This document shows positions 35,999-50,258 of a stretch of 64,000 nucleotides of DNA, one piece after another. The position numbers were made by a program, and so were the translations under genes. Each line of letters starts with the position of its first letter. Position 1 is the stretch's first letter. Location: positions 77,114 to 141,113 of the forward strand of contig JAQTPW010000001.1 of NCBI GenBank assembly GCA_028712565.1, in the 5' to 3' direction. The notes below the pieces were generated by a model. The model was given only the letters and a program-made list of their open reading frames with translations, was not told the origin of the DNA and did not search any database. The stretch is from Minisyncoccota bacterium. Its GTDB lineage: Bacteria; Patescibacteriota; Minisyncoccia; Minisyncoccales; JAQTPW01.

Positions 35999-36715
35999 AT
36001 GAAACAGCGCCGATTAACCCCGAAACGAGATAGAATTTCGCCCGATATAAGCAACTTCGAATATATCAACTCTACGCCAGTTCCGGAGTTAGCTCGAAAA
36101 GCCTTTGCTGCCGGCGTGAAGCCCAATGCACGAGTTGACGAAATTGCTAAAGCAATAGGTCTACCTCCAAGGCTAGTATTTGAAATTAAGCAGGCGTACA
36201 AAACCAGGTATCCGTATTCGCTTGAAACATTAGGTTCGGCGGAAGATTATAAAAACCGTCCTGATGCACATAGTGTTATAGAAGAAATTGAATTGGTCGA
36301 TTTAAATATAGATATTGAAAGTTCAGTTGAAAATAGGTTTTGCGCGAGAGAGATTGATAAGGTTTTAAACATATTGGATCCAAAAGAAAAGAAAATTCTA
36401 CAAATGAGGAAAGGGCTGGGAGATTATCCGTATGCTCAGACATTGGAAGAAGTTGGCGACGTTTTTGGGCAGACCAAAGAGCGGATTCGTCAACTCGAAA
36501 TGAAAGCGCTAGGAAAACTTCGAGCACCGCAGGCAGCGGAAAAACTCGAACCGTATTATTGTCAAATTGATCCGGTTCTTGCTTCTAAAATATTAAAAAT
36601 ATTGAATATTGACAGCTTAAACTCCGAAGGAATTAATACTGATCCTAAAGAAATTGATACAGAAATTAACCAGATTGCAGAGGTAATTGTACGAAGAATT
36701 GTAAACCATACTTAA
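35999..36715 (+). CDS. Sigma-70 region-4 (HTH) domain protein; paralog B of the upstream gene
   Basis: LEEVGDVFGQTKERIRQLEMKALGKLR; shares PNA(T/R)..(D/E)IA(R/K)AIG and L(R/E)PYY with paralog A. ATG at 35999 follows AGGAGGT; the track's upstream start at 35963 has no RBS. Confidence 0.6.
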   Translation: MKQRRLTPKRDRISPDISNFEYINSTPVPELARKAFAAGVKPNARVDEIAKAIGLPPRLVFEIKQAYKTRYPYSLETLGSAEDYKNRPDAHSVIEEIELVDLNIDIESSVENRFCAREIDKVLNILDPKEKKILQMRKGLGDYPYAQTLEEVGDVFGQTKERIRQLEMKALGKLRAPQAAEKLEPYYCQIDPVLASKILKILNIDSLNSEGINTDPKEIDTEINQIAEVIVRRIVNHT

Positions 36716-36758
36716 TTAAGGCGGAGAGAGAAAATCGCAAGTTATCGTGACACAAAAT

Positions 36759-36805
36759 AACGCCATTGTCATTTAAAATTTGTACGATGGCGTTTTATAT
36801 TTTAT
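36759..36805. terminator. Bidirectional terminator between the sigma-like gene (+) and thpR (-)
   Basis: aacgccat ... atggcgtt stem with T-rich flanks on both strands. Confidence 0.55.
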
Positions 36806-37370
36806 CCGATCCCAAAGGCAATGATTCCAAAATTGCGTATTCTGGCCCTTTTTTCTTTAATTCGCTCTCCATAACCTCAAGTGATTTTACTTGAAAATTT
36901 AAAGAGATATCTTCGTTTACTTCGGGCCGTTCTTCTAATTCTAATTTTTGGAATTCCCATTGCTTTAGCCGGCCTAAAGTAATATGAGGCGAATATGGCT
37001 GCCCTTTTTTATTTTCTGATTCCGCTGATAATTTATTTATTGAATTTTCCAGATCCGTCTGCAATTTCCCCAGATCTTCACTTTCCTTGCCTTCCACCCA
37101 AATCATTCTTGGCGGCTTCCCGGGAGGCCCATATAAAATTTTATTAAGTTCAATAATAAATGGCGCGTGTTTTGCCGCCACTTCCTTTGCAATGTTGCAA
37201 ACTTCCAATACGTCTTCATCCGTCAAAGAACCCAAAAAAGCCAGAGTAATGTGCAAATTTTCTCTTTTCGTCCATCTACAAGGCATATCATACCATTCTT
37301 TTTCGTAATCTGATATTTTATTTTTTATATTTTCGGGCAAATTTATTGCAATAAAAACTCGGTGGTTCAT
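36795..37370 (-). CDS. thpR: RNA 2',3'-cyclic phosphodiesterase (2H phosphoesterase, LigT/ThpR)
   Basis: Two HxTL motifs (HITLAFLG, HITLGRL); 191 aa. Confidence 0.8.
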   Translation of the reverse strand: MNHRVFIAINLPENIKNKISDYEKEWYDMPCRWTKRENLHITLAFLGSLTDEDVLEVCNIAKEVAAKHAPFIIELNKILYGPPGKPPRMIWVEGKESEDLGKLQTDLENSINKLSAESENKKGQPYSPHITLGRLKQWEFQKLELEERPEVNEDISLNFQVKSLEVMESELKKKGPEYAILESLPLGSDKI

Positions 37371-37374
37371 TTTT

Positions 37375-37520
37375 TTATTCTACCCTTCGACGCGGCTCAG
37401 GGCAAGCCCCTTCGACGCGGCTCCCGCCTTCGCCAATGCTTCCACCTTCGCCCCTCGGGCTTCGGTGGACGAGTCGGCGGGCAAGCAGGGCAAGCCCTTC
37501 GAACTTGATTTTTAAAAATT
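37375..37520. repeat. GC-rich intergenic repeat island (direct 16-mer cccttcgacgcggctc x2 plus degenerate gcaagcccttcg units)
   Basis: Exact 16-mer copies at 37383 and 37418; about 65% GC within an AT-rich intergenic region. Confidence 0.5.
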
Positions 37521-37597
37521 TATCATTAAGATAAAAGCAGAAATTCGATCTGCTCATTAACACTGTAGTTTTGGATTATTTATGAAGGAGGAATACG

Positions 37598-38656
37598 ATG
37601 TTTGAGTTGGAAAAAATAGTAGGTTGTCTTTCTAATAAAAAGACACTTGATAGTGCCGCAAGAAGACGACAGCCAATAGAATCAGACGAAGATTTATGGA
37701 TGATGCATTTTGGAAATGATTTTTCAATAGATGCTTTTGGAAAAATTATCGTAAGTAAAGCTTTCAGAAGACTTGATTCAAAAACTCAAGTATTAACGGC
37801 CAATGTTAACCCGCATGTACGCAAAAGAAATTCCCACACCTCCGAAGTGGTAAACGCCGCCACGACGATTGCCAGAATCTTGGGACTGAATGAAAAATTG
37901 TGTCTTGCGATTGCTTTAGGACATGATATCGGCCATGCGCCATTTGGCCATCTTGGCGAAACGTTTATTTCTAAAATTACCGGCAAGGATTTTCATCACG
38001 AAACTTTTGGGGTTGTTATTGCCCAATATATTGAACGTCAAGGCAAGGGCCTGAATTTAACCTATCAGGTGCTAGAAGGCATTGAAAATCATTCAAGGGG
38101 GCTCAATGCGCTTTCAAGAAAAGAAAGTATTTCCGAAGAAGCAAATGTAGTGATGTGCGCAGACAAAATTGCTTATATCCTAGCTGACATCAATGATATC
38201 TTTGATAGAACGAGAATTTTGGACTATAAAAAATTCCCTAAGATTTACAAGCTTGCCCATACGTGCGGCAACAATCAGCGAGAAAGAATGGCTTTTTTCA
38301 TAAAAAATTTGTGTCAGGAATCGGCGGAAAACGGATGTGTTTCTTTTGTGAATTCTGAAGCTGCAAAAATTTTTGCTGAGCTCAAAGATAATATGTATGA
38401 AGCTTACAATTTGGTTAATTTGCAGAACAGCGTGGAAATCTTAGGAAAAATTTATTCATTCCTTTCCGAAACTAAATTGATCGGAAATGTTAATCCGGCA
38501 TTAGTTCTCGCCCTTATGACCGATATCGAGGTTCTCTACCTTTATAGGAAGGACTATATTAATGGTAGAGATTTTTATGACTGTTCGGTGGCGGAAATCG
38601 TTGAACATTTAAACGGCAAAAACATAAATTTTACCAATCCAGACTTAGATTGGTAG
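37598..38656 (+). CDS. HD-domain dGTP triphosphohydrolase-like protein
   Basis: FRRLDSKTQV...HTSEVVNAATTIARILGL...LGHDIGHAPFGHLGE matches the Dgt-type HD domain; 352 aa. Confidence 0.75.
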   Translation: MFELEKIVGCLSNKKTLDSAARRRQPIESDEDLWMMHFGNDFSIDAFGKIIVSKAFRRLDSKTQVLTANVNPHVRKRNSHTSEVVNAATTIARILGLNEKLCLAIALGHDIGHAPFGHLGETFISKITGKDFHHETFGVVIAQYIERQGKGLNLTYQVLEGIENHSRGLNALSRKESISEEANVVMCADKIAYILADINDIFDRTRILDYKKFPKIYKLAHTCGNNQRERMAFFIKNLCQESAENGCVSFVNSEAAKIFAELKDNMYEAYNLVNLQNSVEILGKIYSFLSETKLIGNVNPALVLALMTDIEVLYLYRKDYINGRDFYDCSVAEIVEHLNGKNINFTNPDLDW

Positions 38657-38677
38657 GAATAAATTATACAATTATCT

Positions 38678-38705
38678 AGGGCTCTATCAAGAGCCCGTTT
38701 TTATT
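38678..38705 (+). terminator. Rho-independent terminator
   Basis: agggctc tatcaa gagccc followed by gtttttattc. Confidence 0.55.
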
Positions 38706-38725
38706 CTTATGAATTTAGAATGAAA

Positions 38726-38757
38726 TAAAAAGCTCCCGAGAATATTCGAGAGCTTAT
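38726..38757 (-). terminator. Rho-independent terminator for the minus-strand gene ending at 38754
   Basis: aagctcccgag aatatt ctcgagagctt-type stem; T run on the minus strand. Confidence 0.45.
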
Positions 38758-39113
38758 TCTGGTTCCAACATAACGTCTTCCATTTTTCCCATAGACGCTA
38801 TGGAAAAAAGTTTCTCTAGCTTGACAACGCCATCTGAAAAAATCTTTTCTGCCTCTCTCGGATTAGTGTAAAATTGGACATTATCCTTAAAAAGAAGAGT
38901 TAATATTTTTTCTGTCGAAGGTTGATAATCAAAAGCCCGACCAGAAATCGCTTTCACTAAAAACTTAATTTTGTATATCTCATCATCTCCTTTCTCTATA
39001 CTTAGTAAGATACCCAGATAATTGAAAATCGCCATCGGCGCGACAGTCCACCAAACAAATCCTTTTATTTCATTTAAAGAACTTGGAGTGTTCCATACTT
39101 TTTCTGCTTTCAT
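38754..39113 (-). CDS. Hypothetical protein; its RBS region is tandemly duplicated
   Basis: 119 aa; upstream 14-mer aaaaaggagcagat occurs twice in tandem (39113-39150). Confidence 0.5.
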   Translation of the reverse strand: MKAEKVWNTPSSLNEIKGFVWWTVAPMAIFNYLGILLSIEKGDDEIYKIKFLVKAISGRAFDYQPSTEKILTLLFKDNVQFYTNPREAEKIFSDGVVKLEKLFSIASMGKMEDVMLEPE

Positions 39114-39215
39114 TTTTATCTGCTCCTTTTTATCTGCTCCTTTTTGTGTACTATACGCAAACTATCAAGTTCTACAAAAAATTCAAGCCCGAGGAATCTT
39201 TTAATTTATTATTGC

Positions 39216-39410
39216 TTAGTCCTTAAAATCAAACAATTCATCAATTGTCGTTTTAAGGGCCTTGGCCACTTCGTGCGCAAGGCAAAGCGAAGGATTGTAT
39301 TTGTTCTGCTCCAAATAAATGATTGTTTCTCGCCGGACGCCGACTTTTTTTGCCAGTTCTTCTTGGGTCAGATCGTATTTTGCCCTGAATTCTTTTATCC
39401 TGTTTTTCAT
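39216..39410 (-). CDS. XRE-family helix-turn-helix transcriptional regulator
   Basis: [29 protein letters not shown] is a Cro/C1 HTH; 64 aa. Confidence 0.85.
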
Positions 39411-39414
39411 AGAA

Positions 39415-39852
39415 TTAAATCAACTTCCCTTTTTTATCGTAGTAAAGCCAGAAAATAAAAAAGAAAATGGCCATGCCGGCGATAGCGCCACCTACTGTTT
39501 GGCTGGCGTCCAATTTTTCCGCGCCGAATAACACTTTGGCAAAAAATGGCTCAAACCAAGATATGGCGAGCAGCCAATATAATGAAAACTGAAAACTTGC
39601 GGCGGATGCCTGTATTGTAACTTTTTTAGATCTTTCATCTTCAATGGGCATACCTTCCTTTACGTCTTTATATCGTCTTTTGATAAAGAAGAGCATAAAC
39701 AAAACCACTATAACCGGGATTAAAAAAGAAATTATGGTTCCACGACTTGTTTCTTTTTTGGCGATCACTTCAAAGGCGTACAAAGCAACGGTGGATAAAA
39801 CCGTGATGCTAAGTATTGTCATAATAATTAAACGAACTTTGTCTTTTTTCAT
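39415..39852 (-). CDS. Membrane protein encoded immediately upstream of, and co-transcribed with, the XRE regulator
   Basis: 145 aa, four hydrophobic helices; 4-nt gap to the downstream gene. Confidence 0.6.
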
Positions 39853-39970
39853 ATTTTTTATAGTTAATTATATTTAACATTTTGTTATATTCAACTAACT
39901 TAATGTTATATTATTCTAACATCTTGTCAAGGTCATTTATCCACAACTGTAAAAATCACGCCCTAAACAA

Positions 39971-40006
39971 AAAGGACGTCGGTTTTTGGGTTGACGTCCT
40001 TTAGAA
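39971..40006 (-). terminator. Rho-independent terminator for the minus-strand small Zn-ribbon gene
   Basis: aaaggacgtc ... gacgtccttt; the T run (tttttgttt) is present only on the minus strand. Confidence 0.6.
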
Positions 40007-40024
40007 GACGAAAATAAAAACAAA

Positions 40025-40192
40025 TCATTTCATCATTATTTTCAAGGGCCGGCGCAGGTAGCTTTTACCCGGTTCGTGTCCGTTTGCGCACATGCAATCT
40101 CCGTCAGGCACGAATCCGCCGCAGATATTGCACTTACTTTCTTTTGGCTTGCAAACCACATATCGTTTTGGTATTACTGCTTGTGTTGTCAT
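40025..40192 (-). CDS. Small Cys-rich zinc-ribbon protein (55 aa; absent from the ORF track)
   Basis: Minus strand reads agaggtgaagacATG; translation MTTQAVIPKRYVVCKPKESKCNICGGFVPDGDCMCANGHEPGKSYLRRPLKIMMK; followed by its own terminator. Confidence 0.45.
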   Translation of the reverse strand: MTTQAVIPKRYVVCKPKESKCNICGGFVPDGDCMCANGHEPGKSYLRRPLKIMMK

Positions 40193-40414
40193 GTCTTCAC
40201 CTCTTATTATATTAGAAAAGTGCTATCACTTTTCTTTTTTCATACTATATCGTTAGATAAAAAAATCAAGCCACGATGGTGTGCTTAAAACTAGCAACCA
40301 ATTACGGAAATGCTTCTTCTTAAAGTCCATAAATAATGATAAAATTAAATTGAAAATGTAGCCCCGTTAGAGATATGAATAATTACGATATTTATGTAAT
40401 CCAAAGCATTAAGG

Positions 40415-41431
40415 ATGGTAAAAGAAGTTAATTTATACAAAAAACTTAATGAAAAGAATGTGCAATGCCAGAATTGCGCGCATTATTGCGTGATTGTTCC
40501 CGGAAACCGAGGGATTTGCGGAGTAAGAGAAAACATTGATGGAAAATTATTTGCCAAAAACTATGGGAAAATAATTGCCTGTAATATCGACCCTATCGAA
40601 AAAAAGCCATTTTACCATTTTTTACCCGGCACTAATACCTTATCTATCGCGACTGTCGGCTGCAATTTTAAATGTTCGAATTGCCAAAACTGGGATATTT
40701 CCCAAGGATTTAAGGGCGAGGCGAAAATTCCCGGGGAATTTATTCCTCCAGAAGATATTGTAAAAATTGCGGAAAATCAAAAACTGCCAAGTATTTCCTA
40801 CACCTATACTGAACCTACTATTTTTTCAGAATATGCCCTGGATGTAATGAAGTGCGCAAAAGCAAAAGGTCTGAAAAATGCTTGGGTTTCAAACGGTTTT
40901 ATGAGTAAAGAATCTGCAAAAATGGTAATCCCCTATCTTGATGCAAACCGAATTGATATTAAAAGTTTTTCCGATGATTTTTACAAAAAGAATTGTGGCT
41001 CGAGATTACAGCCGGTTTTAGATACCTGCAAAATAATGAAAAAATCCGGAGTTTGGGTGGAAATAATAACTTTGGCGATTCCAACTTTAAGCGATTCCGA
41101 AAAAAACTTTAAAGATATTGCAAAATTTATTTATAAAGAACTGGGCGCAGAAACTCCTTGGCATATTACCCAGTTTTCCGGAGAAATTTCTTGGAAATTA
41201 AAGCACTTGCCAGAAACTCCAGTTGAAACCCTAAAAATGGCTTGGAAAATCGGAAAAGAAGCTGGTCTAAAATATGTTTATACCGGTAATATGCCGGGTT
41301 TGGACTCTGAAGACACTCTGTGCCCAAAATGCGGGACGATAGCTATCAGTCGAACAGGTTACAGCATTTCCAGAAAAGATAAGTCAGGAAAATGTCCGCA
41401 GTGTGGCACAGATTTGAATATTATTAACTAA
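40415..41431 (+). CDS. AmmeMemoRadiSam system radical SAM enzyme (PFL-activase-like)
   Basis: N-terminal VQCQNCAHYC then DPIEKKPFYHFLPG...SIATVGCNFKCSNCQNWDIS (CxxxCxxC) matches the family signature; 338 aa. Confidence 0.8.
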   Translation: MVKEVNLYKKLNEKNVQCQNCAHYCVIVPGNRGICGVRENIDGKLFAKNYGKIIACNIDPIEKKPFYHFLPGTNTLSIATVGCNFKCSNCQNWDISQGFKGEAKIPGEFIPPEDIVKIAENQKLPSISYTYTEPTIFSEYALDVMKCAKAKGLKNAWVSNGFMSKESAKMVIPYLDANRIDIKSFSDDFYKKNCGSRLQPVLDTCKIMKKSGVWVEIITLAIPTLSDSEKNFKDIAKFIYKELGAETPWHITQFSGEISWKLKHLPETPVETLKMAWKIGKEAGLKYVYTGNMPGLDSEDTLCPKCGTIAISRTGYSISRKDKSGKCPQCGTDLNIIN

Positions 41432-41446
41432 TGTTAAATAGTTAAA

Positions 41447-42070
41447 ATGCTAAATAGCCAAATAATCTTCGCTTGCATATCCCCTCACCCGCCGATTATC
41501 TTGCCATCGATCGGGTCAGAGGAAGACCGAAAGCAAGTAATAAAAACGGTTGAAAGTTTAGAATTATTGGGACAGAAATTCGCCGAAGCAAAACCCGATT
41601 CAATAATAATTTCCTCTCCCCACCCCGATTGGGGCTTTAATGTGCCATTATTTTTCCTTGCCCCCAATTTTAAAGGAGAGTTTAAACAATATATGATGGG
41701 TTTGGAAACGCCTGAATTTTATTTTAATGACGGGAAAAAAGTTTATGAAACGCTGGATAAAAATAAAAAATATGCTTTAATTGCGTCAGGAGATCTGTCT
41801 CACTGTTTAAAAGAAGATGGCCCTTACGGGTTTTCTCCGGAAGGTCCAAAATTTGACAAGGATTTAATTGACGCATTAAAAAAGAAAAATATTGAGAAAA
41901 TCTTAAACTTGGAAGATGATTATCCTCAAGCCGGAGAATGCGGATTAAGATCTTTTTGTTTTATGCTTGGAATTTTAGAAGCGGCAAAAATTAACTGGCA
42001 TGCCGAAATTTTATCTTATGAGGGCCCATTCGGCGTAGGTTATTTAGTAGCTAACTTTAAATTGCATTAA
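41447..42070 (+). CDS. Memo/LigB-superfamily protein (candidate AmmeMemoRadiSam system protein B)
   Basis: His motifs ISPHPP, SSPHPD and SGDLSHC typical of the class-III extradiol dioxygenase/MEMO1 fold; 207 aa; 16 nt after the radical SAM gene. Confidence 0.5.
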   Translation: MLNSQIIFACISPHPPIILPSIGSEEDRKQVIKTVESLELLGQKFAEAKPDSIIISSPHPDWGFNVPLFFLAPNFKGEFKQYMMGLETPEFYFNDGKKVYETLDKNKKYALIASGDLSHCLKEDGPYGFSPEGPKFDKDLIDALKKKNIEKILNLEDDYPQAGECGLRSFCFMLGILEAAKINWHAEILSYEGPFGVGYLVANFKLH

Positions 42071-42074
42071 AAAT

Positions 42075-42464
42075 ATGAAAGACCTTATAAAAAAATACTT
42101 AGCATATTTAATCAGGTGGCAGCTTAGCACGCCGATATTGGCTCCGGTAATCGCTTATTTTAAGCATTCTCCCTCGCTTTTCGGGACAAAGGAAGATTGG
42201 ATAGGATCTGCGGTTGCAAACTTAATTGGCGGCCTCATATTTTTTTGGGTTGATAAATGGATATTCAAAAGCACAATTTTAGCTCCTCTTTGGGAAATAA
42301 AAGAAAATATAAAGTGCGCTGACTGCGGAAAATTATGCCGCGGTTATAGGGTTGTAAAAGCCGGAAACTATGACAGAATGCAGGATGTTGCCCCCCAGTT
42401 TCGATGCGAGGATTGCTCAAAAAGAAAATTAGAGGAATTAAAACAACGCGGAATAAAAATTTAA
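42075..42464 (+). CDS. Membrane protein with a C-terminal CxxC...CxxC zinc ribbon
   Basis: Two TM helices, then CADCGKLC...CEDCSKR; 129 aa. Confidence 0.5.
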   Translation: MKDLIKKYLAYLIRWQLSTPILAPVIAYFKHSPSLFGTKEDWIGSAVANLIGGLIFFWVDKWIFKSTILAPLWEIKENIKCADCGKLCRGYRVVKAGNYDRMQDVAPQFRCEDCSKRKLEELKQRGIKI

Positions 42465-42465
42465 T

Positions 42466-42948
42466 ATGAAAATTGCCATCATCTCCGACAGTCACGATAA
42501 TCTGCCAAATCTAAAAAAAGCCGTAGACTGGATTAAAAAAGAAAAAATAAAAATAATTATCCACTGCGGAGATGTTTCAAATCAAGAAATTTTTAAAGAA
42601 GCCCTCGGAGATTACAAAGGGAAAATTTATTTATCTCGTGGCAACTGCGACTTGGGAGATTTTGACATAATCCCCCGCTTGAAAATTTATGACGAATTTG
42701 GAGAAGTATCAGTTAGAAATAAAAAAGTTGCTTTTACGCATTTTCCAAAAATTGCTGGAGAGTTGGCAATGAAAGAAAAATATGATTTAGTATTTTACGG
42801 TCATAATCACAAACCCTGGGTAAAAACGGTTGGAAAAACTCAGCTGGTAAATCCCGGAAATTTATCCGGAGTTTTCTATAAAGCCACTTTTGCAACTTAC
42901 GACAATAGGGCTGACAAGCTTGAATTAAAAATATTAGAAAGGTTGTAA
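42466..42948 (+). CDS. Metallophosphoesterase, YfcE/MJ0936 family
   Basis: MKIAIISDSHDN...IIHCGDV...GHNH motifs; 160 aa. Confidence 0.8.
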   Translation: MKIAIISDSHDNLPNLKKAVDWIKKEKIKIIIHCGDVSNQEIFKEALGDYKGKIYLSRGNCDLGDFDIIPRLKIYDEFGEVSVRNKKVAFTHFPKIAGELAMKEKYDLVFYGHNHKPWVKTVGKTQLVNPGNLSGVFYKATFATYDNRADKLELKILERL

Positions 42949-42959
42949 AATGATATAGT

Positions 42960-44039
42960 ATGAAAAATTTGGAAGAAATTTTAACAGGAGAGCCGAAATT
43001 CAGGTTAAAACAAATAAAAAAAGCTGTTTTTGTTGATTTAATTGATGATTGGGAAAAAGTTACGACTTTGCCCAAAGAATTGCGCCAAAAATTAGCGGAA
43101 AATTACCCGATTTTGGAATTAAAAGAAGAAAAGATCTTAGCATCAAAAAACAACCAAACTACAAAAGCCCTTTTTGTGTTAAATGATGGGTTGCAGATAG
43201 AAACAGTTTTAATGAAACATGAAGTGGATTTGACAAACTCACCGCAAGCTGGCCGCAGAACAGTTTGCGTTTCCTCTCAAGCCGGCTGCGCAATGAATTG
43301 TCAGTTTTGCGCAACTGGGCAGCAGGGTTTTAACCGAAATTTATCTGCCGAAGAAATTATTGATCAGGTTTTATTTTTTGCAAGATTTTTGAAAAAATCC
43401 AATGAAAAAGTGACAAATGTAGTTTTTATGGGAATGGGAGAGCCATTTTTAAATTATGATAACGTTTTGGCAGCTACTAAAATTTTAAACGATAAAGATG
43501 GTTTTAATTTAGGAGCGCGTCATATTTCCATTTCCACTTGCGGTATTATTGAAGGAATTGAAAGATTGGCAAATGAAAAAATGCAGATAAATTTGGCAAT
43601 TTCCCTGCATGCGCCGAATAATGAAATCCGCTCGAGATTAATGCCGATTAATGAAAAATATCCGATTGAGAAAATTTTGGCGTCAGTTGATGATTATATA
43701 AAAAAAACGGGAAGGAGGGTTATGTTTGAATACCTGATGATAGACGGGGTGAACGATTCCGAAGCCCAAGCCGAAGAATTAGCTAAACTTTTAATTTATA
43801 ACCTGCATTTCGGAAACCAAAAAAATTTTTCCCGGGAAGATCGTGGATTTTATTTTGTGAATTTAATATCGTTTAATCCAATCGGGCATTCCGAATTCAA
43901 GCCCTCTCCCGGCTGGAAAATTAAAAAATTCAAAGAAATTTTGGAAAAAATGGGGGTTGTTGTTACCCAGAGATATCGTTTCGGAAAAGAAATTAAAGCC
44001 GCCTGCGGGCAATTGGCAGGAAAAGAAAATGAGATTTGA
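42960..44039 (+). CDS. rlmN: 23S rRNA (adenine2503-C2)-methyltransferase, radical SAM (RlmN/Cfr family)
   Basis: CVSSQAGCAMNCQFCATG radical SAM cluster; 359 aa. Confidence 0.85.
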   Translation: MKNLEEILTGEPKFRLKQIKKAVFVDLIDDWEKVTTLPKELRQKLAENYPILELKEEKILASKNNQTTKALFVLNDGLQIETVLMKHEVDLTNSPQAGRRTVCVSSQAGCAMNCQFCATGQQGFNRNLSAEEIIDQVLFFARFLKKSNEKVTNVVFMGMGEPFLNYDNVLAATKILNDKDGFNLGARHISISTCGIIEGIERLANEKMQINLAISLHAPNNEIRSRLMPINEKYPIEKILASVDDYIKKTGRRVMFEYLMIDGVNDSEAQAEELAKLLIYNLHFGNQKNFSREDRGFYFVNLISFNPIGHSEFKPSPGWKIKKFKEILEKMGVVVTQRYRFGKEIKAACGQLAGKENEI

Positions 44040-44328
44040 AATAAAAGGACCATTAAAAGAAAATATTTACAATTTAATGCGAAACATTAACTATCACTTT
44101 TTAGGTACGGACGAAAGAACTGGAGAATTAAATTTTATTCATCCAATCGCCGGCGCTTATCCAAGATTTCACGTTTATTTAAAAATTGACGGCCAAAATG
44201 TTATTTTCAATCTTCATTTGGATCAAAAAAGGCCGGTTTATGATGGCGCTACCGCCCACAGTGGCGAGTATGAGGGAGAATTAGTCGAAAAAGAGGCCGA
44301 AAGAATTAAAAATTCATTTTTTCACTAA
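44029..44328 (+). CDS. Hypothetical protein (start overlaps the rlmN stop)
   Basis: 99 aa from MRFEIKG; the track's longer start at 43957 lies inside rlmN. Confidence 0.45.
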   Translation: MRFEIKGPLKENIYNLMRNINYHFLGTDERTGELNFIHPIAGAYPRFHVYLKIDGQNVIFNLHLDQKRPVYDGATAHSGEYEGELVEKEAERIKNSFFH

Positions 44329-44329
44329 T

Positions 44330-44839
44330 ATGCATCCCTTTGCGGTATTGGCAAAAAAGGCGGTAGAAACTTACATAAACGAGGGGAAAATAATTTCCTT
44401 GCCCTCTGATTTATCAAAAGAATTTTTGGAGAAAAAAGCTGGAGCTTTTGTAACGCTTGAAAAAAATGGTAAATTACGAGGATGTATCGGAACTTATTTG
44501 CCAACTCGTAATAATGTTGCTGAGGAAATCATTTATAATGCAATTTCTGCGGCGACTGAAGATTATAGATTTGATACGGTTCAGGCCGATGAACTGCCCC
44601 AACTTTCTTACACCGTTTACATTTTAAATGAACCTGGACTAATTTCAGATATAAAGGAGTTAAATCCTAAAAAATTTGGTATAATTGTAAGGTCGGGTAG
44701 AAAATGCGGGCTCTTGCTTCCAGATTTGGAGGGCGTGGATACAGTTGAGGAACAAATTTCAATTTGTTGCCAGAAAGGAGGCATTGACCCCAAAGAAAAA
44801 ATTTCAATTTATAAATTTACAGTTGAGAAATACCAATAA
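44330..44839 (+). CDS. AMMECR1-domain protein (AmmeMemoRadiSam system protein A)
   Basis: GAFVTLEKNGKLRGCIG signature; 169 aa. Confidence 0.8.
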   Translation: MHPFAVLAKKAVETYINEGKIISLPSDLSKEFLEKKAGAFVTLEKNGKLRGCIGTYLPTRNNVAEEIIYNAISAATEDYRFDTVQADELPQLSYTVYILNEPGLISDIKELNPKKFGIIVRSGRKCGLLLPDLEGVDTVEEQISICCQKGGIDPKEKISIYKFTVEKYQ

Positions 44840-44849
44840 TTTCCAAAAT

Positions 44850-45521
44850 ATGGAAAATAATCAAGAATTGGCAAAAATATTCAATGAAATCGCAAATCTT
44901 TTGGAAATAAAGGGAGTGGCTTTCAAGCCCGCAGCTTACCGGAAAGCCGCAAAAGCTCTGGAAAATTTAGATTGTGATATTTCTGTAATTTATAAAGAAA
45001 AGGGGCAAAAAGGTATAAAATCAATACCAGGCGTTGGAGAAAGTATTTCAAAAAAAATTGAAGAATATTTAAAAAAGGAAAAAATTAAATATTTTAATGA
45101 ATTAGAGGAAGAGACCGCACTTCAGCAAATTATCACTTATTATTTCCAAACAAAAGGATTGTCGCTAAGCACATTAAAAGAAAATGCTAGAAAAAAGAAA
45201 ATAATTTATTCAAGGTTTACAAAACCGGCAAAACAGTTATTAATTCTGGCGGGCTCAATAGAAAAAGCAAAAGAAGCTATTGACAAGGTTGCCAAATGGG
45301 CAAGATCCAGAAATTTAGATTATGCGATTGAAACGGTTTTTAAAAAATGGCTGGAATTGGATATGCTAAAGCCAAAAGAAGTGGTAAAAAAACCTTTTTT
45401 CCGAAACATGCCAATGATTTGGTCCGAAACTAAAAAGAAATGGTATGTTATTGATTCAGCTGGCAGCTGGCTTGAATTTGCCGGAAAAGAAGCAGAAATC
45501 GAATGGAGAATAATTAAATAG
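44850..45521 (+). CDS. DNA polymerase X family N-terminal (8-kDa/HhH) domain protein; polymerase palm absent
   Basis: NQELAKIFNEIANLLEIKGVAFKPAAYRKAAKALENL and GVGESISKKIEEYL match the PolX N-terminal region; only 224 aa. The track's start at 44745 overlaps the AMMECR1 gene. Confidence 0.55.
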   Translation: MENNQELAKIFNEIANLLEIKGVAFKPAAYRKAAKALENLDCDISVIYKEKGQKGIKSIPGVGESISKKIEEYLKKEKIKYFNELEEETALQQIITYYFQTKGLSLSTLKENARKKKIIYSRFTKPAKQLLILAGSIEKAKEAIDKVAKWARSRNLDYAIETVFKKWLELDMLKPKEVVKKPFFRNMPMIWSETKKKWYVIDSAGSWLEFAGKEAEIEWRIIK

Positions 45522-45566
45522 TAAAATTGGTATAATTAGTATAAATTAGTATATTTGCATCGAGTT

Positions 45567-46511
45567 ATGAAAATTGTTTTTATCGGAACCCCGGAATTCG
45601 GAGCAGTTATTTTAGAAGAGCTTGCAAAAACAGATTACAGGCCGGCTTTGGTCATAACCGAAACCGATAAACCCAAAGGCAGAAAGCAGATTATCACTCC
45701 CCCGCCGGTTAAAATTGTAGCGGAAAAATACGGCATTTCTGTTTTGCAGCCAGAAAAAATTATAAATTGCAAAAATGAAATTGAAAAACTAAGGCCAGAT
45801 TTAATAATCGTTGCGGCTTACGGACAAATTTTACCAAAAGAAATTTTGGAAATTCCAAAATATAGGTCCATAAACGTTCATCCATCTCTTTTGCCAAAAT
45901 ATCGCGGTCCTTCCCCTGTTCAAAATGCTATTCTAAACGGAGACAAAGAAACGGGAGCAACAATTATGTTAATGGATGAAAAAATGGATCACGGTCCGAT
46001 TTTAACGCAAAAAAAAGTTCCAATTGAAATAAATGAAAACGCGATACAGCTCCATGAAAAGTTGGCAAAAATTGGGGCAAAACTTCTTATAAATACAATC
46101 CCCTCTTGGGTAACTGGCGCAATTAAACAAATAATTCAAGATGAAAAAATGGCAACCTATACAAAAATTATCAAAAAAGAAGATGGAAAAATTGACTGGA
46201 AAAAACCAGCAAAAGAAATAGATAGGCAAATCCGGGCATTTGACGATTGGCCGGGAAGCTATACGTTTTTTAAAAACGGCGACAATTTAATAAGGCTAAA
46301 AATTATAAAAGCTGGAGTTTTGGCACAAACACAGCATGGCCCTTTTGGTGTGCCGGGAAAAACATTCATGGCAACCAACGAAGAAATTGCCGTTCAAACC
46401 GGAAAAGATTATTTAATAATCAAGGAATTGCAACCGGAAGGTAAACGAAAAAAGGCCGCAAAAGAATTTTTAAAAGGCCATACTAAATTTATTGGAATAA
46501 TTTTTGAGTAA
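45567..46511 (+). CDS. fmt: Methionyl-tRNA formyltransferase
   Basis: MKIVFIGTPEFGAVILEEL...SINVHPSLLPKYRGPSP motifs. Confidence 0.9.
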   Translation: MKIVFIGTPEFGAVILEELAKTDYRPALVITETDKPKGRKQIITPPPVKIVAEKYGISVLQPEKIINCKNEIEKLRPDLIIVAAYGQILPKEILEIPKYRSINVHPSLLPKYRGPSPVQNAILNGDKETGATIMLMDEKMDHGPILTQKKVPIEINENAIQLHEKLAKIGAKLLINTIPSWVTGAIKQIIQDEKMATYTKIIKKEDGKIDWKKPAKEIDRQIRAFDDWPGSYTFFKNGDNLIRLKIIKAGVLAQTQHGPFGVPGKTFMATNEEIAVQTGKDYLIIKELQPEGKRKKAAKEFLKGHTKFIGIIFE

Positions 46512-46536
46512 AATTATTTCTTTGTTTTATAAAAAA

Positions 46537-46578
46537 TAAGCTGGTGGAAATTACCCACCAGCTCTTTGTTTTTGTTTG
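46537..46578. terminator. Bidirectional rho-independent terminator
   Basis: agctggtgg aaatta cccaccagct with T runs on both strands. Confidence 0.7.
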
Positions 46579-46585
46579 GAAAAAA

Positions 46586-47134
46586 TTACTTTAGAATTTC
46601 GCCGCCAAAGTATCCAGTAATGCTAGCTTTGGCTTTGATATGGCCGGAAATTGCGGCTTTAAATGCGGTATAATCTGCATTTTCCGCCAATCCCAGCGTT
46701 TCTGTATCCAGCGCATACAAAGTAAATTCATACCGATGCGCCGGGACATTAGCCGGCGTTCCCGGGCCCCCGTAGCTATTTGTCGGCAGTCCGGGCATAG
46801 GCAGCATATTGAAATTATTTTTCAATTCTTTCACTCGAGGCACGAAATTATTTGGACTCGCGCCCTCGGGTATAGCGCGGACAACCGCAGGGATATCCAC
46901 TATTATCCAGTGGATAAACAGATTGTCTGGCAATGTGCCTTTAGGTGGCAGCATGCCTATCCCGGGGAATTCCGTTCCCCATGGAATATCTAGGTCCGCC
47001 ATTATAATGGCGAAACTTTTTGTTCCCTCGGGAACGGCGCTCCAAATTAATCTTGGAGACTTATTTCCTCCGGCAAGCCCGCATTTTTCGGGTATTCTGC
47101 CCATATCACTAAAATTTCCAGACCTCAGCTCCAT
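46586..47134 (-). CDS. YbhB/YbcL family PEBP (Raf-kinase-inhibitor-like) protein; GC-rich relative to its neighbours
   Basis: SPRLIWSAVPEGTKSFAIIMADLD...HRYEFTLYAL pattern; 182 aa. Confidence 0.8.
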   Translation of the reverse strand: MELRSGNFSDMGRIPEKCGLAGGNKSPRLIWSAVPEGTKSFAIIMADLDIPWGTEFPGIGMLPPKGTLPDNLFIHWIIVDIPAVVRAIPEGASPNNFVPRVKELKNNFNMLPMPGLPTNSYGGPGTPANVPAHRYEFTLYALDTETLGLAENADYTAFKAAISGHIKAKASITGYFGGEILK

Positions 47135-47253
47135 AGCAGCCCTCCTTTTTTTAAAACTAATGCTTCTATTTTTAGAAGCATCTCTTGCTAACTATAAAAA
47201 AAGTGGATGATTTTGTCAATCACGTTCCAAAAAGAAGTTGCATAAAATCCATC

Positions 47254-48939
47254 TTATTTTAACTCTTTTTCAATGTCTTCTATTTCTTTTCTGATCGCAT
47301 CTTCAGAACTCTTTAGGAAATAAAACAATCTGTCTCTTAACTTCTTTTCATCAGGACTTAAACCCGGCTTTGAGTCAAAATATTCAATTCTTAATTCCAA
47401 ATCTTTTCTTAATTTTTCAAAATTTTTCTTCAAACTTTCCGCGGCTTCCCGTGTTTCTTTTATCAAACGGTCTTTTTCTTTTCTATTTTTCCGAAGAATA
47501 AGAAGAATTAGGAATATCGCCATTAAAATCAAAAGGACAATTAAAGCCGAGAAAAAAGTGGAATAAGTGAATATGAAGGGGCCAATCGCAATCCCAGACA
47601 AAATCACTTTAACAGAATAAGATGGTGAAGGATTGCTTATGGCTCCTTTTGCGTTTCTTGTTCTGGCATATAACGCATAGTTTCCGGATTTTAAAAACTC
47701 TTCGGTTGTAAAAGACCAGTTTCCATCTTTATCGCTTTTGGCTTCCCAATTTTTAGCTTTATTTTCCTTGCTTTCTAAAAATATTAAAATTGTGGAATTA
47801 GGCAAAGCAGTGCCTTCTATGTAAAAAGTATCTTTTCCAGAAATGTAAGTTTTTGGATAAATTAATATTTTTGGCGGTTCAATTGATTCAACTTCCAAGA
47901 TTGTTTCAGATTTTACGGTATTGCCGGCTTTATCAAGGGCTTTTATTGTAATTTCATAAGTTCCGGGCGACTGAAAGGGCACATGATAAGGATTTGTGTC
48001 AGCCGGCACTACCGAAAAAGTGTCTTTGTCATCAATCTTTATTTCGTAATGGCTAATTCCCGACAATTCGTCTTTTGCTTCAAAATATAAATCAGGGTTT
48101 GGGTTTGCCAGATCCCCTTCGTTGTCAATTCTAATATCAAATGACCCGGGAGATTTTGTATCAATCTGAACCCGGTAATGCGCAGTTTCGCTCCAGCCAA
48201 CATTGTTTTGCACCTTTAAATGGAAATACCAGATTCCATCTTCAGTTTTTTCAAACTTCTCTGAATTAAAAATGCCTTCTGATTTTTGTTTTGGCTGGGT
48301 TTGCGACTTTTGGTCAAATTCAGTTGAAACTCCGATAATTTCTGAAGAGATATTCCATAGAAATTCCGGATTTGAATTATTATACCAGCTATTTTCTTTT
48401 GGATGCGTGTTCGAACTAATTTTTGGTTTTTCTGGCAACCCCGGCGTTACTGGTACGCCTTTTTCTATTTTATAATTTCCATCAGAAACGCTAGTCAAAA
48501 TGTCTGTTCCTCGGCCGTCCGCGGCCAAAACTAACGCATCAGAAATTGAAACCTTGGCAGTTCCTGAAACTTTCCCGCGGAAATTAACAACCAAAATGGT
48601 TCCAACTCCGGTAAATCCGGGAGCCGGCACTCCGCCGCCATAAGTAATTTTTCCTTGTGAATTTGAAAAAACCGGCTCTTCTGGCCAAAGCTGGAATATA
48701 GAGCCGGACTTTGACACGCTGACTACTTCCAATATATTTGCCGGAAATGAAATTGTGGCTTTCGACGCGTTTATTGGGGCACCATCGCTGTCTACTTTAA
48801 TTTTTACCGAAAACTGGCTGTAAACCTCATAGTTTCCCGCCGCAGGTTCAAAAAACAGCGATGCATTGGCAGCTTTTATTTCAGTTGCTGAAAAAAGGAA
48901 AATTATTAAAAATGACAGAACAAAAGCTAATTTTTTCAT
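47254..48939 (-). CDS. Surface protein: signal peptide, cohesin-like N-terminal module, Ig-like domains, C-terminal TM anchor and a charged coiled-coil tail (paralog 3 of 3)
   Basis: 561 aa; the N-terminal ~140 aa module is shared with the two upstream genes; the start overlaps the upstream stop. Confidence 0.6.
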   Translation of the reverse strand: MKKLAFVLSFLIIFLFSATEIKAANASLFFEPAAGNYEVYSQFSVKIKVDSDGAPINASKATISFPANILEVVSVSKSGSIFQLWPEEPVFSNSQGKITYGGGVPAPGFTGVGTILVVNFRGKVSGTAKVSISDALVLAADGRGTDILTSVSDGNYKIEKGVPVTPGLPEKPKISSNTHPKENSWYNNSNPEFLWNISSEIIGVSTEFDQKSQTQPKQKSEGIFNSEKFEKTEDGIWYFHLKVQNNVGWSETAHYRVQIDTKSPGSFDIRIDNEGDLANPNPDLYFEAKDELSGISHYEIKIDDKDTFSVVPADTNPYHVPFQSPGTYEITIKALDKAGNTVKSETILEVESIEPPKILIYPKTYISGKDTFYIEGTALPNSTILIFLESKENKAKNWEAKSDKDGNWSFTTEEFLKSGNYALYARTRNAKGAISNPSPSYSVKVILSGIAIGPFIFTYSTFFSALIVLLILMAIFLILLILRKNRKEKDRLIKETREAAESLKKNFEKLRKDLELRIEYFDSKPGLSPDEKKLRDRLFYFLKSSEDAIRKEIEDIEKELK

Positions 48940-50258
48940 TTTAACCCCTTTAATTCTTCTTCTTGTTTTTGAATTTCTTCCTGTTTTTTAATTAATCTTA
49001 TTTTTAATTCGTTTTGTTTTTTCTTTTTCTTTCGGTTTATTCCCAATAAAATCCAGATGACCGACACCAAAATCAGGAAAATTATTAGAGAAATCAGCCA
49101 CCAAGGCAAAAAGAATCCCCAAAAAAATATGCCTTCTCTTGTAATATATATGCCGGCGGGAATGATTTGAATTTGCAAAGTTTCGTCTTGCCAGTTGCCC
49201 GCCGCATCAAAAGCGCGGACGACAATTAAATACTTTCCAACCGATAGCTCGGGCAACTTATAGGGGCTTGCGGTTTCCATAAAAAACGCTGTTTCTTTTT
49301 CTTGCCTGCCCGGAGTTATATCAATTATTTTTGTTTCAAAATGGTCAAAGCCAGACAAAGCATCGGTTGTAATAAATGAAATAATTGGATTTTTTGTTGT
49401 TGTTTTTTCTGCCGGGCTGGCATTTGGTAAAAACGACGCCGGCGGAGTTGCATCTATTTGCACTAAATAGTGGGAAATTCCTCCCCAAACATTGGCTTTT
49501 TTCGCTTTAATGTGGAAATAAAAGATCCCGTCCGCTAAATTTGAATAAGAAACTGAATCAATATCTCCCTCTGAATTGTTATCGGGAATCCCCTGGGGAT
49601 CATTGTCTATGCTGTAGCTGAATTCGGCAACGCCTTCGCCTTTTACCCACGCAAAAGTTGGATTGTTGTTTTTATACCATTTGTTTTGGTCAGAATGAGT
49701 TGGAGAAAAAACTTCCGGGCCTTCTGGCGGAGGTATAGTTAAGCTGTAAACCCCTCTGCCCATAGACGATAAAACGTTTGTGCCTTTTCCGTCATCCAAA
49801 AGAATTTTTGAAGTGTCTTGAAAATAAATTGTAGTATTTCCCGGAGAAACGGCGCGAAAAGTGATTGTAGAAACCAATCCAGCAGAAGTATTGATTCCGG
49901 GAGAAGGCATTCCTCCCTGAAAAGAAGCGGTCCCTTCGGAATTTGAATAGGCGGGCTGGGCAACCCAGACAGAAATAAAAGATTTTCCGGCTGTCGGACT
50001 GGCAATCTGCAGCTTCTTGGGATCAAATTTTAAATCCGCCTGAATTGCGTTAATGTTATTGCTGCCGGTATTTACAAAAATCGAAACATCAAACGTATTT
50101 CCCACATAAAATGTCCCGGAATTCGGAGAAAGATAAAAGGAAGCGCCAGTAGCATAAACATTATTCGCAGATATTAAAAAGCAAAAATTAAAAATCAAAA
50201 ATAACACCGCTAGAAAAGTGAAAAATATCTTTGATTTTATTTTAGGAAAAAACTTCAT
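48936..50258 (-). CDS. Surface protein with cohesin-like N-terminal module, TM anchor and KKKKKQNELK...coiled-coil tail (paralog 2 of 3)
   Basis: 440 aa; LKFDPKKLQIASPTAGKSFISVWVAQPAYSNSEGTASFQGGMPSPG aligns with the other two paralogs. Confidence 0.6.
   Translation of the reverse strand: MKFFPKIKSKIFFTFLAVLFLIFNFCFLISANNVYATGASFYLSPNSGTFYVGNTFDVSIFVNTGSNNINAIQADLKFDPKKLQIASPTAGKSFISVWVAQPAYSNSEGTASFQGGMPSPGINTSAGLVSTITFRAVSPGNTTIYFQDTSKILLDDGKGTNVLSSMGRGVYSLTIPPPEGPEVFSPTHSDQNKWYKNNNPTFAWVKGEGVAEFSYSIDNDPQGIPDNNSEGDIDSVSYSNLADGIFYFHIKAKKANVWGGISHYLVQIDATPPASFLPNASPAEKTTTKNPIISFITTDALSGFDHFETKIIDITPGRQEKETAFFMETASPYKLPELSVGKYLIVVRAFDAAGNWQDETLQIQIIPAGIYITREGIFFWGFFLPWWLISLIIFLILVSVIWILLGINRKKKKKQNELKIRLIKKQEEIQKQEEELKGLK

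Follow-up and report, generated by a model that had tools for sequence, protein, structure and literature searches.

The 64,000-nucleotide (nt) stretch of DNA analysed here, referred to below as the window (positions 77,114 to 141,113 of contig JAQTPW010000001.1, assembly GCA_028712565.1, from a Minisyncoccota bacterium), carries at 40415-46511 a string of nine genes that includes those of a radical SAM (S-adenosylmethionine) enzyme, a LigB-type protein and AMMECR1. This trio was compared with the AmmeMemoRadiSam system, whose components are represented by the models TIGR04337 (AmrS), TIGR04336 (AmrB) and TIGR04335 (AmrA). The system is a known, uncharacterised one; what is new at this locus is the shortened LigB-type partner, an embedded orphan found only in bacteria of the Candidate Phyla Radiation (CPR), and the insertion of unrelated genes. 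The features of the locus, with protein lengths in amino acids (aa), are as follows.

36795..37370, - strand: LigT/ThpR-type 2',3'-cyclic phosphodiesterase at the left edge, a gene of the conserved CPR backbone (Pfam LigT_PEase in the neighbours)
40186..40213, + strand: candidate sigma-70-like promoter upstream of AmrS (TTGTCA-16-TATATT, 10/12 matches; a consensus match only)
40415..41431, + strand: AmrS, radical SAM enzyme resembling PflA-type activases (TIGR04337)
41447..42070, + strand: short LigB-type/Memo-superfamily protein of 207 aa in the AmrB slot (Pfam LigB)
42075..42464, + strand: 129-aa protein with two transmembrane (TM) segments and a CxxC...CxxC zinc ribbon (no family match)
42466..42948, + strand: YfcE/MJ0936-type metallophosphodiesterase (TIGR00040)
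42960..44039, + strand: RlmN, C2-methyltransferase of 23S rRNA A2503 and tRNA A37 (TIGR00048)
44029..44328, + strand: p99, orphan protein of 99 aa, CPR-only family (ATG at 44029)
44330..44839, + strand: AMMECR1 (AmrA; TIGR04335, Pfam AMMECR1)
44850..45521, + strand: HHH8, stand-alone protein of about 222-223 aa (PF14716, HHH_8)
45567 (or TTG at 45555)..46511, + strand: fmt, methionyl-tRNA formyltransferase, backbone gene (TIGR00460)
46539..46563, + strand: bidirectional intrinsic-terminator-like hairpin just 3' of fmt (GC-rich stem of 9-11 bp, T-run on both strands)

All nine genes lie on the + strand, and every open reading frame (ORF) was found where the earlier note on this DNA, made from the sequence alone, had placed it. 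That note had described a trio split by other genes within one operon, and this description stands: the string is bracketed by the promoter-like and the terminator-like sites, and the nine genes form one apparent transcription unit. The trio is contained within 4.4 kb on one strand, with LigB and AMMECR1 2.3 kb apart. The gaps computed from the coordinates are, from AmrS to HHH8, 15, 4, 1, 11, -11, 1 and 10 nt, the negative value being the overlap between the end of RlmN and the start of p99, and 33-45 nt between HHH8 and fmt. The statement that no gap exceeds 12 nt was thus nearly right, failing for the first gap and for the one before fmt. An Rfam scan of 36000-48000 returned nothing above chance, hence no leader riboswitch was found upstream of AmrS.

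AmrS, AMMECR1 and the short LigB-type protein

The radical SAM protein passed TIGR04337 with a full-length match (residues 8-334, 328.6 bits against a cutoff of 220), and its next-best models were those of glycyl-radical-enzyme activases (PflA with 61 bits, the YjjW activase and NrdG). The cluster motif C83-x3-C87-x2-C90 (CX3CX2C) can be read from the translation, together with a four-cysteine motif near the N-terminus (C18, C21, C25, C35) and a CxxC...CxxC zinc ribbon at the C-terminus. AMMECR1 scored 132.4 bits with TIGR04335 (cutoff 99) and 151 bits with the Pfam AMMECR1 model. Its motifs R50-G-C52-I-G and D78-Y-R80-F81 match the RGChG and DxRa signatures that were proposed as the active site of AMMECR1 (PMC2034487). 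By model scores and motifs both proteins are canonical members of their families.

The earlier note had counted all three AmmeMemoRadiSam components as present. For AmrS and AMMECR1 this was correct, but the 207-aa protein between them remained below the cutoff of TIGR04336 (17.0 against 26 bits) and below the gathering score of Pfam Memo (PF01875; 23.8 against 27 bits). It passed Pfam LigB (PF02900) instead, with 93.8 against 26.3 bits, in two stretches of which the better covered model positions 117-268. The gene is genuine and under strong constraint: 2883 homologous clusters were found, the best 120 of which are 70-80% identical to the window protein and 202-224 aa long. The protein is 100% identical to one from a 'Candidatus Pacebacteria' metagenome-assembled genome (MAG), and H14, H59, D116, S118, H119, E164, C165 and G166 are invariant among its close homologues.

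The confident AlphaFold2 model of the protein (predicted local distance difference test score, pLDDT, 90.3; predicted template modelling score, pTM, 0.90) was compared with known structures using Foldseek. The best match was TK2203 of Thermococcus kodakarensis (5hee; 8e-12), and the top 31 matches were all LigB-type enzymes, with aminophenol dioxygenases, DesB, DOPA dioxygenases, YgiD and LigAB following TK2203; Memo appeared only from rank 32, at about 1e-5. A profile built from 38 diverse family members likewise found TK2203 (E 2.4e-27) and other LigB enzymes, did not detect MEMO1 at E<=1, and the alignment of a close-homologue profile with MEMO1 by hhalign was not usable.

These matches would suit a generic LigB enzyme, a class III extradiol dioxygenase serving aromatic catabolism that happens to lie beside AmrS, in which case the system would be incomplete and without AmrB. 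Such an identity, which the earlier note had named as one outcome that would undo its reading, agrees with the failure against TIGR04336 and Memo, with the closest structures being extradiol dioxygenases, and with the NCBI name 'class III extradiol dioxygenase subunit B-like domain-containing protein'. Evidence of other kinds argues against it, beginning with the position of the gene. About 160 related loci were compared overall; among them, a LigB-anchored set of 80 loci was collected from GTDB species representatives, the window proteins being mapped by tblastn. All of these loci are CPR by contig context, a few records being labelled with other taxa. AmrS lay upstream of LigB on the same strand in 68 of the 72 LigB-anchored loci with room for it, and the median distance between the two genes was about 16 nt.

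The second kind of evidence comes from the relatives. An exhaustive search of 1.84 billion representatives returned 1839 relatives of the 207-aa protein, and the nearest of them outside CPR, which are 40-47% identical to it, fall into two size groups: LigB-type proteins with a length of about 265 aa, and longer proteins of about 440-520 aa. The longer ones that were scanned are fusions of LigB to AMMECR1, the AMMECR1 half of which passes TIGR04335, and in one case (P0132) the LigB part fused to AMMECR1 is of the short form. With TIGR04336 the full-length and fused relatives obtained 22-38 bits, straddling the cutoff of 26. Compared with full-length relatives (about 265-270 aa), the window protein is devoid of about 55-60 residues between SPH59 and DWGF, and it is mainly because of this deletion that it misses the AmrB model. 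Together with the deletion, an invariant Cys165 that has no counterpart in the aligned dioxygenases sets the protein apart from them, no other aromatic-catabolism genes were seen in the neighbourhoods examined, and the window contains no second Memo-like gene. Taken together, these observations make a catabolic dioxygenase a very improbable identity for the 207-aa protein, its failure with TIGR04336 notwithstanding. The refuting outcome named in the earlier note has come about by half: the AmrB and Memo models fail for this protein, yet other evidence places it in the system.

In one related locus (L164) the slot of the short LigB is filled by a full-length LigB/Memo protein of 263 aa. Because the 207-aa protein follows AmrS in nearly all loci, because its relatives are fused to AMMECR1 and because a full-length LigB/Memo protein takes its place in L164, it was assigned to the system. 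As far as alignments and gene context can tell, it is a CPR variant, highly conserved but reduced in length, of the LigB-type clade that goes with AMMECR1 and whose full-length members are frequently fused to it. This clade was already described by Balaji and Aravind (PMC2034487), as a 'ring-opening dioxygenase' that neighbours AMMECR1 and is fused to it. The same locus L164 (3260-4996) shows a gene for an ATP-binding protein of the AIRS/PurM superfamily (312 aa) between AmrS and the 263-aa LigB/Memo protein, followed by p99 and AMMECR1; this gene may encode a further accessory enzyme.

The putative metal site of the short LigB was compared with those of dioxygenases and of MEMO1. In a 142-sequence MAFFT alignment, for which the MEMO1 sequence was checked against 7kq8, position 165 is Cys in 139 of 140 representatives and position 164 is Glu in 119 of 140, and C165 is paired with the iron ligand C244 of MEMO1, a member of the assigned metal-ligand triad H49, H81 and C244 (PMC11081632). 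HMMER profile alignments gave a different picture: E164 was aligned with the Glu that serves as ligand in DHPAO and aminophenol dioxygenase, C165 faced Gly or Val, and TK2203 had Asp at this place. By profile alignment, both His positions of the dioxygenases, their Glu position and that of their catalytic His are conserved in the short LigB. The invariant Cys is a signature of the family, having no equivalent in the aligned dioxygenases.

Comparison with known systems places the locus as follows. Like AmmeMemoRadiSam loci, it has a radical SAM protein and an AMMECR1 that pass their models, and a LigB/Memo-superfamily gene right after the radical SAM gene on one strand, as a conserved set. It differs in its B component (207 against about 270 aa, below the TIGR04336 and Memo thresholds, with the 55-60-aa segment gone), in the 2.3 kb of unrelated genes that split the trio and in the CPR-only 99-aa orphan that is often embedded in it. 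With the LigB-AMMECR1 fusions and the relatives of about 265 aa the window protein shares the SPH, SGDLSH and (E)CG motifs, whereas in the window the two genes are separate and the LigB part is shortened. TK2203 and the class III extradiol dioxygenases (those compared were aminophenol dioxygenase, DHPAO/HpaD, DesB, DODA and LigAB) are its best matches in sequence and fold, but they differ from it by the invariant Cys165, by the lid segment that is deleted in the window protein, and by context, which in the window is an anaerobic CPR host with a radical SAM partner and no catabolic operon. Human MEMO1 (3bcz, 7kq8) has the superfamily fold in common with it, and D189/H192 of MEMO1 align with D116/H119; the C244-C165 pairing is seen in MAFFT only and is dependent on the alignment, and MEMO1 is not detected by the family profile at E<=1, the 207-aa protein in turn being below the threshold of Pfam Memo.

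Conserved order and variable inserts

AMMECR1 followed LigB on the same strand in 45 of the 47 loci with at least 6 kb, a number composed of 40 loci counted by script and five flagged loci in which AMMECR1 overlaps the end of LigB by 1 nt. AmrS was also present in 61 of the 65 loci having both LigB and AMMECR1. In these 65 loci the two genes were adjacent in 21, separated by p99 alone in nine and by other inserts of up to 4.8 kb in 35, so that LigB and AMMECR1 are contiguous, with or without p99, in 30. These counts show, at the level of gene order, that AmrS-LigB-(p99)-AMMECR1 is conserved as a cassette. Sequence conservation was compared over one set of 15 loci, with median identities of 65.5% for AmrS, 67.0% for LigB and 54.8% for fmt.

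The genes lying between LigB and AMMECR1 were far less constant. In the window they start with the 129-aa zinc-ribbon protein, for which no match was found among the family models searched, and which occupied this interval in one of the 65 loci. The phosphodiesterase (TIGR00040, YfcE/MJ0936: 93.2 against 56.25 bits) was also found there in one of the 65, and is present in L163 too. RlmN passed TIGR00048 with 365.9 against 290 bits; its gene was found between LigB and AMMECR1 in three of the 65 loci, and was further seen in L155, L156, L161-L163 and L165. The 326-aa gene of L001 was considered as a degenerate RlmN and rejected, having no similarity. Elsewhere the clustered inserted ORFs belong to unrelated families (another metallophosphoesterase, a methyltransferase, TIM-barrel, HD and GAF/ANTAR proteins), and glutamine synthetase, shikimate kinase, threonine synthase, Ham1 and Maf also occur between LigB and AMMECR1. 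A conserved core order with inserts of such heterogeneity indicates that the interleaved genes are variable filler; to judge from the compared loci, the zinc-ribbon protein, the phosphodiesterase and rlmN of the window are lineage-specific filler. L163 and L165 have almost the gene order of the window, which indicates that this arrangement is common to a small sublineage and is not general to the system. Recurrence of the gene order in related genomes, a point raised in the earlier note, therefore applies to AmrS-LigB-...-AMMECR1 and not to what lies between.

One of the inserted genes deserves separate treatment. The p99 family comprises 745 clusters; the 120 members listed are 83-124 aa long, mostly about 100, none of them has a Pfam match, and those with a named source are all from CPR/Patescibacteria or from MAGs given as unclassified 'bacterium'. 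The family thus appears to be restricted to CPR. Its invariant residues (R18, Y22, P45-R-F-H48, N61-L-H-L-D-Q66, P69, Y71, H77, G79 and E80) form PRFH, NLHLDQ and AHSGEY-type motifs. The predicted model is confident (pLDDT 86) and consists of a beta-sheet and a C-terminal helix, and had no significant fold or sequence match in the PDB. Within the 65 loci p99 lay between LigB and AMMECR1 in 21, immediately before AMMECR1 in 15 and immediately after LigB in 13, and the same placement is repeated in L161 and L163-L166. In blocks that contain rlmN, the gene that directly follows rlmN is usually p99 (the window, L014, L057, L156, L161-L163 and L165).

Its placement, its invariant polar and His motifs and its apparent CPR restriction would be compatible with a CPR-specific system of four components, in which p99 is an obligatory partner. 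This is unlikely: two thirds of the trio-bearing loci lack p99, it has no recognisable fold or family, and it occurs without the trio in L162 (LigT|RlmN-p99-HHH8-fmt-efp) and probably also in L156. As a candidate accessory component p99 may still take part in the system, but its absence from most trio loci and its presence without the trio in L162 make such a role doubtful too. Two further ideas about p99 were rejected. It is not the split-off lid segment of the short LigB, as it also accompanies the full-length 263-aa LigB/Memo protein in L164, and the 238-aa gene of L002, considered as containing p99, has no similarity to it.

The LigT|HHH8-fmt-efp backbone

The genes flanking the cassette form a conserved arrangement of their own. 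LigT was found divergently upstream of AmrS in 56 of the 80 LigB-anchored loci; in loci that lack the cassette it lies upstream of HHH8. HHH8 came after AMMECR1 in 30 of the 35 LigB-anchored loci that had room for it, the stop codon of one often overlapping the start codon of the other, and was itself followed by fmt and/or efp. The fmt product passed TIGR00460 with 304.3 against 201.5 bits, the match beginning at residue 5 of the TTG-started ORF.

HHH8 had been taken for an N-terminal fragment of PolX. It passed HHH_8 (PF14716; 62.2 against 30 bits), and its residues 3-88 match the 8-kDa helix-hairpin-helix (HhH) domain of Thermus PolX (3b0x residues 2-87, E 1.4e-10). Bacterial PolX proteins consist of this 8-kDa domain, followed by polymerase-beta palm/thumb and PHP domains, and are about 570 aa long. 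For the remaining C-terminal stretch of about 130 aa in HHH8 no match was obtained, and with the PolX model NF006375 the protein scored 37 against 426 bits. The HHH8 family comprises 3565 clusters, nearly all of 221-226 aa and 72-82% identity, and HHH8 is the most conserved protein of the block (median identity 72% compared with 55% for fmt, and also above efp). By length and conservation, the supposed fragment is a conserved stand-alone protein of about 222 aa and not a gene remnant, and it belongs to the backbone and not to the trio.

The latter point was examined by a reverse survey of 77 metagenome loci anchored on HHH8 (L084-L160), 20 of which had at least 4.5 kb upstream. The arrangement LigT(-)|HHH8-(fmt)-efp is that in which HHH8 is almost always found. 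Fourteen of the 20 had it without AmrS, LigB or AMMECR1. Both AmrS and AMMECR1 occur in the other six: the trio is complete in four of them, and an unrelated ORF takes the place of LigB in L091 and L092. A role of HHH8 as a dedicated partner of AMMECR1 was rejected on this basis. The survey indicates that the trio is a cassette that can be present or absent, and that its link to the translation genes is positional. As judged by gene order, the site of the cassette is a variable island with LigT(-) on one side and HHH8-fmt-efp on the other, and the backbone exists without it.

It was suggested in the earlier note that the tight coupling to enzymes of the ribosome and of translation initiation may hint at the substrate class. 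In its strongest form this would mean that the trio is functionally coupled to RlmN, fmt, EF-P, LigT and the HhH protein, and acts on ribosomal or transfer RNA. For AMMECR1, a part in RNA base modification has indeed been predicted (PMC2034487), the trio is kept and strongly conserved in very small genomes, rlmN lies inside the cassette in the window, L014, L054, L057, L155, L161, L163 and L165, and HHH8-fmt-efp regularly follows AMMECR1 (30 of 35, see above). However, rlmN separates LigB from AMMECR1 in only 3 of the 65 LigB-anchored loci, the other inserts are metabolically unrelated housekeeping genes, 14 of the 20 HHH8-anchored loci have the backbone but not the trio, and L162 keeps RlmN-p99-HHH8 without the trio. 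The association of the trio with translation genes can therefore be explained by shared synteny in one lineage; functional coupling to them is improbable, and the interleaving with rlmN, the phosphoesterase and fmt was not borne out as a hint at the substrate.

The roughly 3 kb between LigT and AmrS in the window (37598-40192) hold genes for an HD-domain protein (352 aa, + strand), an XRE-type helix-turn-helix protein (64 aa, - strand), a membrane protein (145 aa, - strand) and a Cys-rich ORF (55 aa, - strand). Across related loci its length varies between 36 nt and 4.5 kb, which makes it a second variable spot. An insert also recurs between AMMECR1 and HHH8; its members are a PadR-like regulator (18 ORFs) and, on the minus strand, a gene resembling that of myo-inositol-1-phosphate synthase (12 ORFs), and it was seen in L006, L008-L010, L023, L033, L038, L040, L042, L061, L064, L068 and L166.

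Interpretation and possible mechanism

Considering the canonical AmrS and AMMECR1, the LigB-type protein between them and the conserved order of the three, the locus is probably a genuine but variant AMMECR1/radical-SAM/LigB-superfamily module in a Paceibacteria/Nealsonbacteria-like CPR bacterium, with neighbours that are positional. Several observations weigh against this interpretation. The scores of the 207-aa protein stay below both curated thresholds, that of AmrB and that of Memo, and whether E164 or C165 would be its third metal ligand depends on the alignment method (HMMER or MAFFT). Two loci depart from the scheme: L091 keeps AmrS and AMMECR1, with an unrelated minus-strand ORF of 219 aa (5706-6365) in the LigB slot, and L108 (1751-3448) has AmrS alone, directly followed by HHH8. 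All evidence of co-location comes from one CPR lineage, and since synteny is strongly conserved in it, gene linkage alone is weak evidence of function. Absence of the cassette from the LigT|HHH8 site is no proof of its absence from those genomes. In the literature covered (PMC open-access articles and bioRxiv), no experimental paper on the system and no biochemical function for AMMECR1 or Memo was found.

If the variant-module interpretation is correct, a reaction sequence can be proposed. AmrS would reductively cleave SAM at a [4Fe-4S] cluster held by C83, C87 and C90 and, like the glycyl-radical activases, might abstract hydrogen from a substrate bound to a macromolecule or to AMMECR1; the closeness of AmrS to these activases suggests such hydrogen abstraction, and a substrate that is macromolecular or held by a protein. 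The substrate could be held in the cleft of AMMECR1, with Cys52 of the RGCIG motif being used. The LigB-type protein would then carry out a second step at a mononuclear iron site (H14, H59, E164 and/or C165, with H119 as a base). Considering the anaerobic CPR cell and the radical SAM neighbour, O2-dependent ring cleavage is unlikely for this step.

The published prediction for the AMMECR1 system is an uncharacterised RNA base modification in a joint pathway (PMC2034487). A nucleobase or nucleotide in RNA is thus the leading published substrate prediction, for which this locus gives no specific support. Conservation of AMMECR1 and Memo extends from archaea to humans, and both are linked to human disease. 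Modification of a nucleotide base or of an isoprenoid was reportedly also proposed by Burroughs et al. in 2019, in a JBC article on the PCAD-Memo superfamily. A bolder combination, in which AmrS, the mini-LigB with its invariant Cys, p99 and AMMECR1 form a four-part system whose recurrent placement beside RlmN and between LigT and fmt-efp reflects rRNA or tRNA modification, is highly doubtful; if true, it would give AMMECR1 and Memo their first concrete lead to a substrate.

Three points emerge from the locus. Very small CPR genomes retain the system under strong constraint, and as the 207-aa LigB-like core is missed by the curated models, automated annotation will under-count the system in CPR. 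In highly syntenic CPR genomes little can be learnt about the substrate from neighbouring genes. For reconstitution, the compact proteins and possibly p99 could be convenient material.

Two observations concern other parts of the window. Two overlapping genes in tandem (47254-50258, - strand), coding for apparently paralogous proteins of 561 and 440 aa, probably specify cell-surface proteins; they share an N-terminal signal or TM segment, internal motifs, a C-terminal TM helix and a charged coiled tail. The GC content at 62001-64000 is 0.476, compared with about 0.37 in the remainder of the window.

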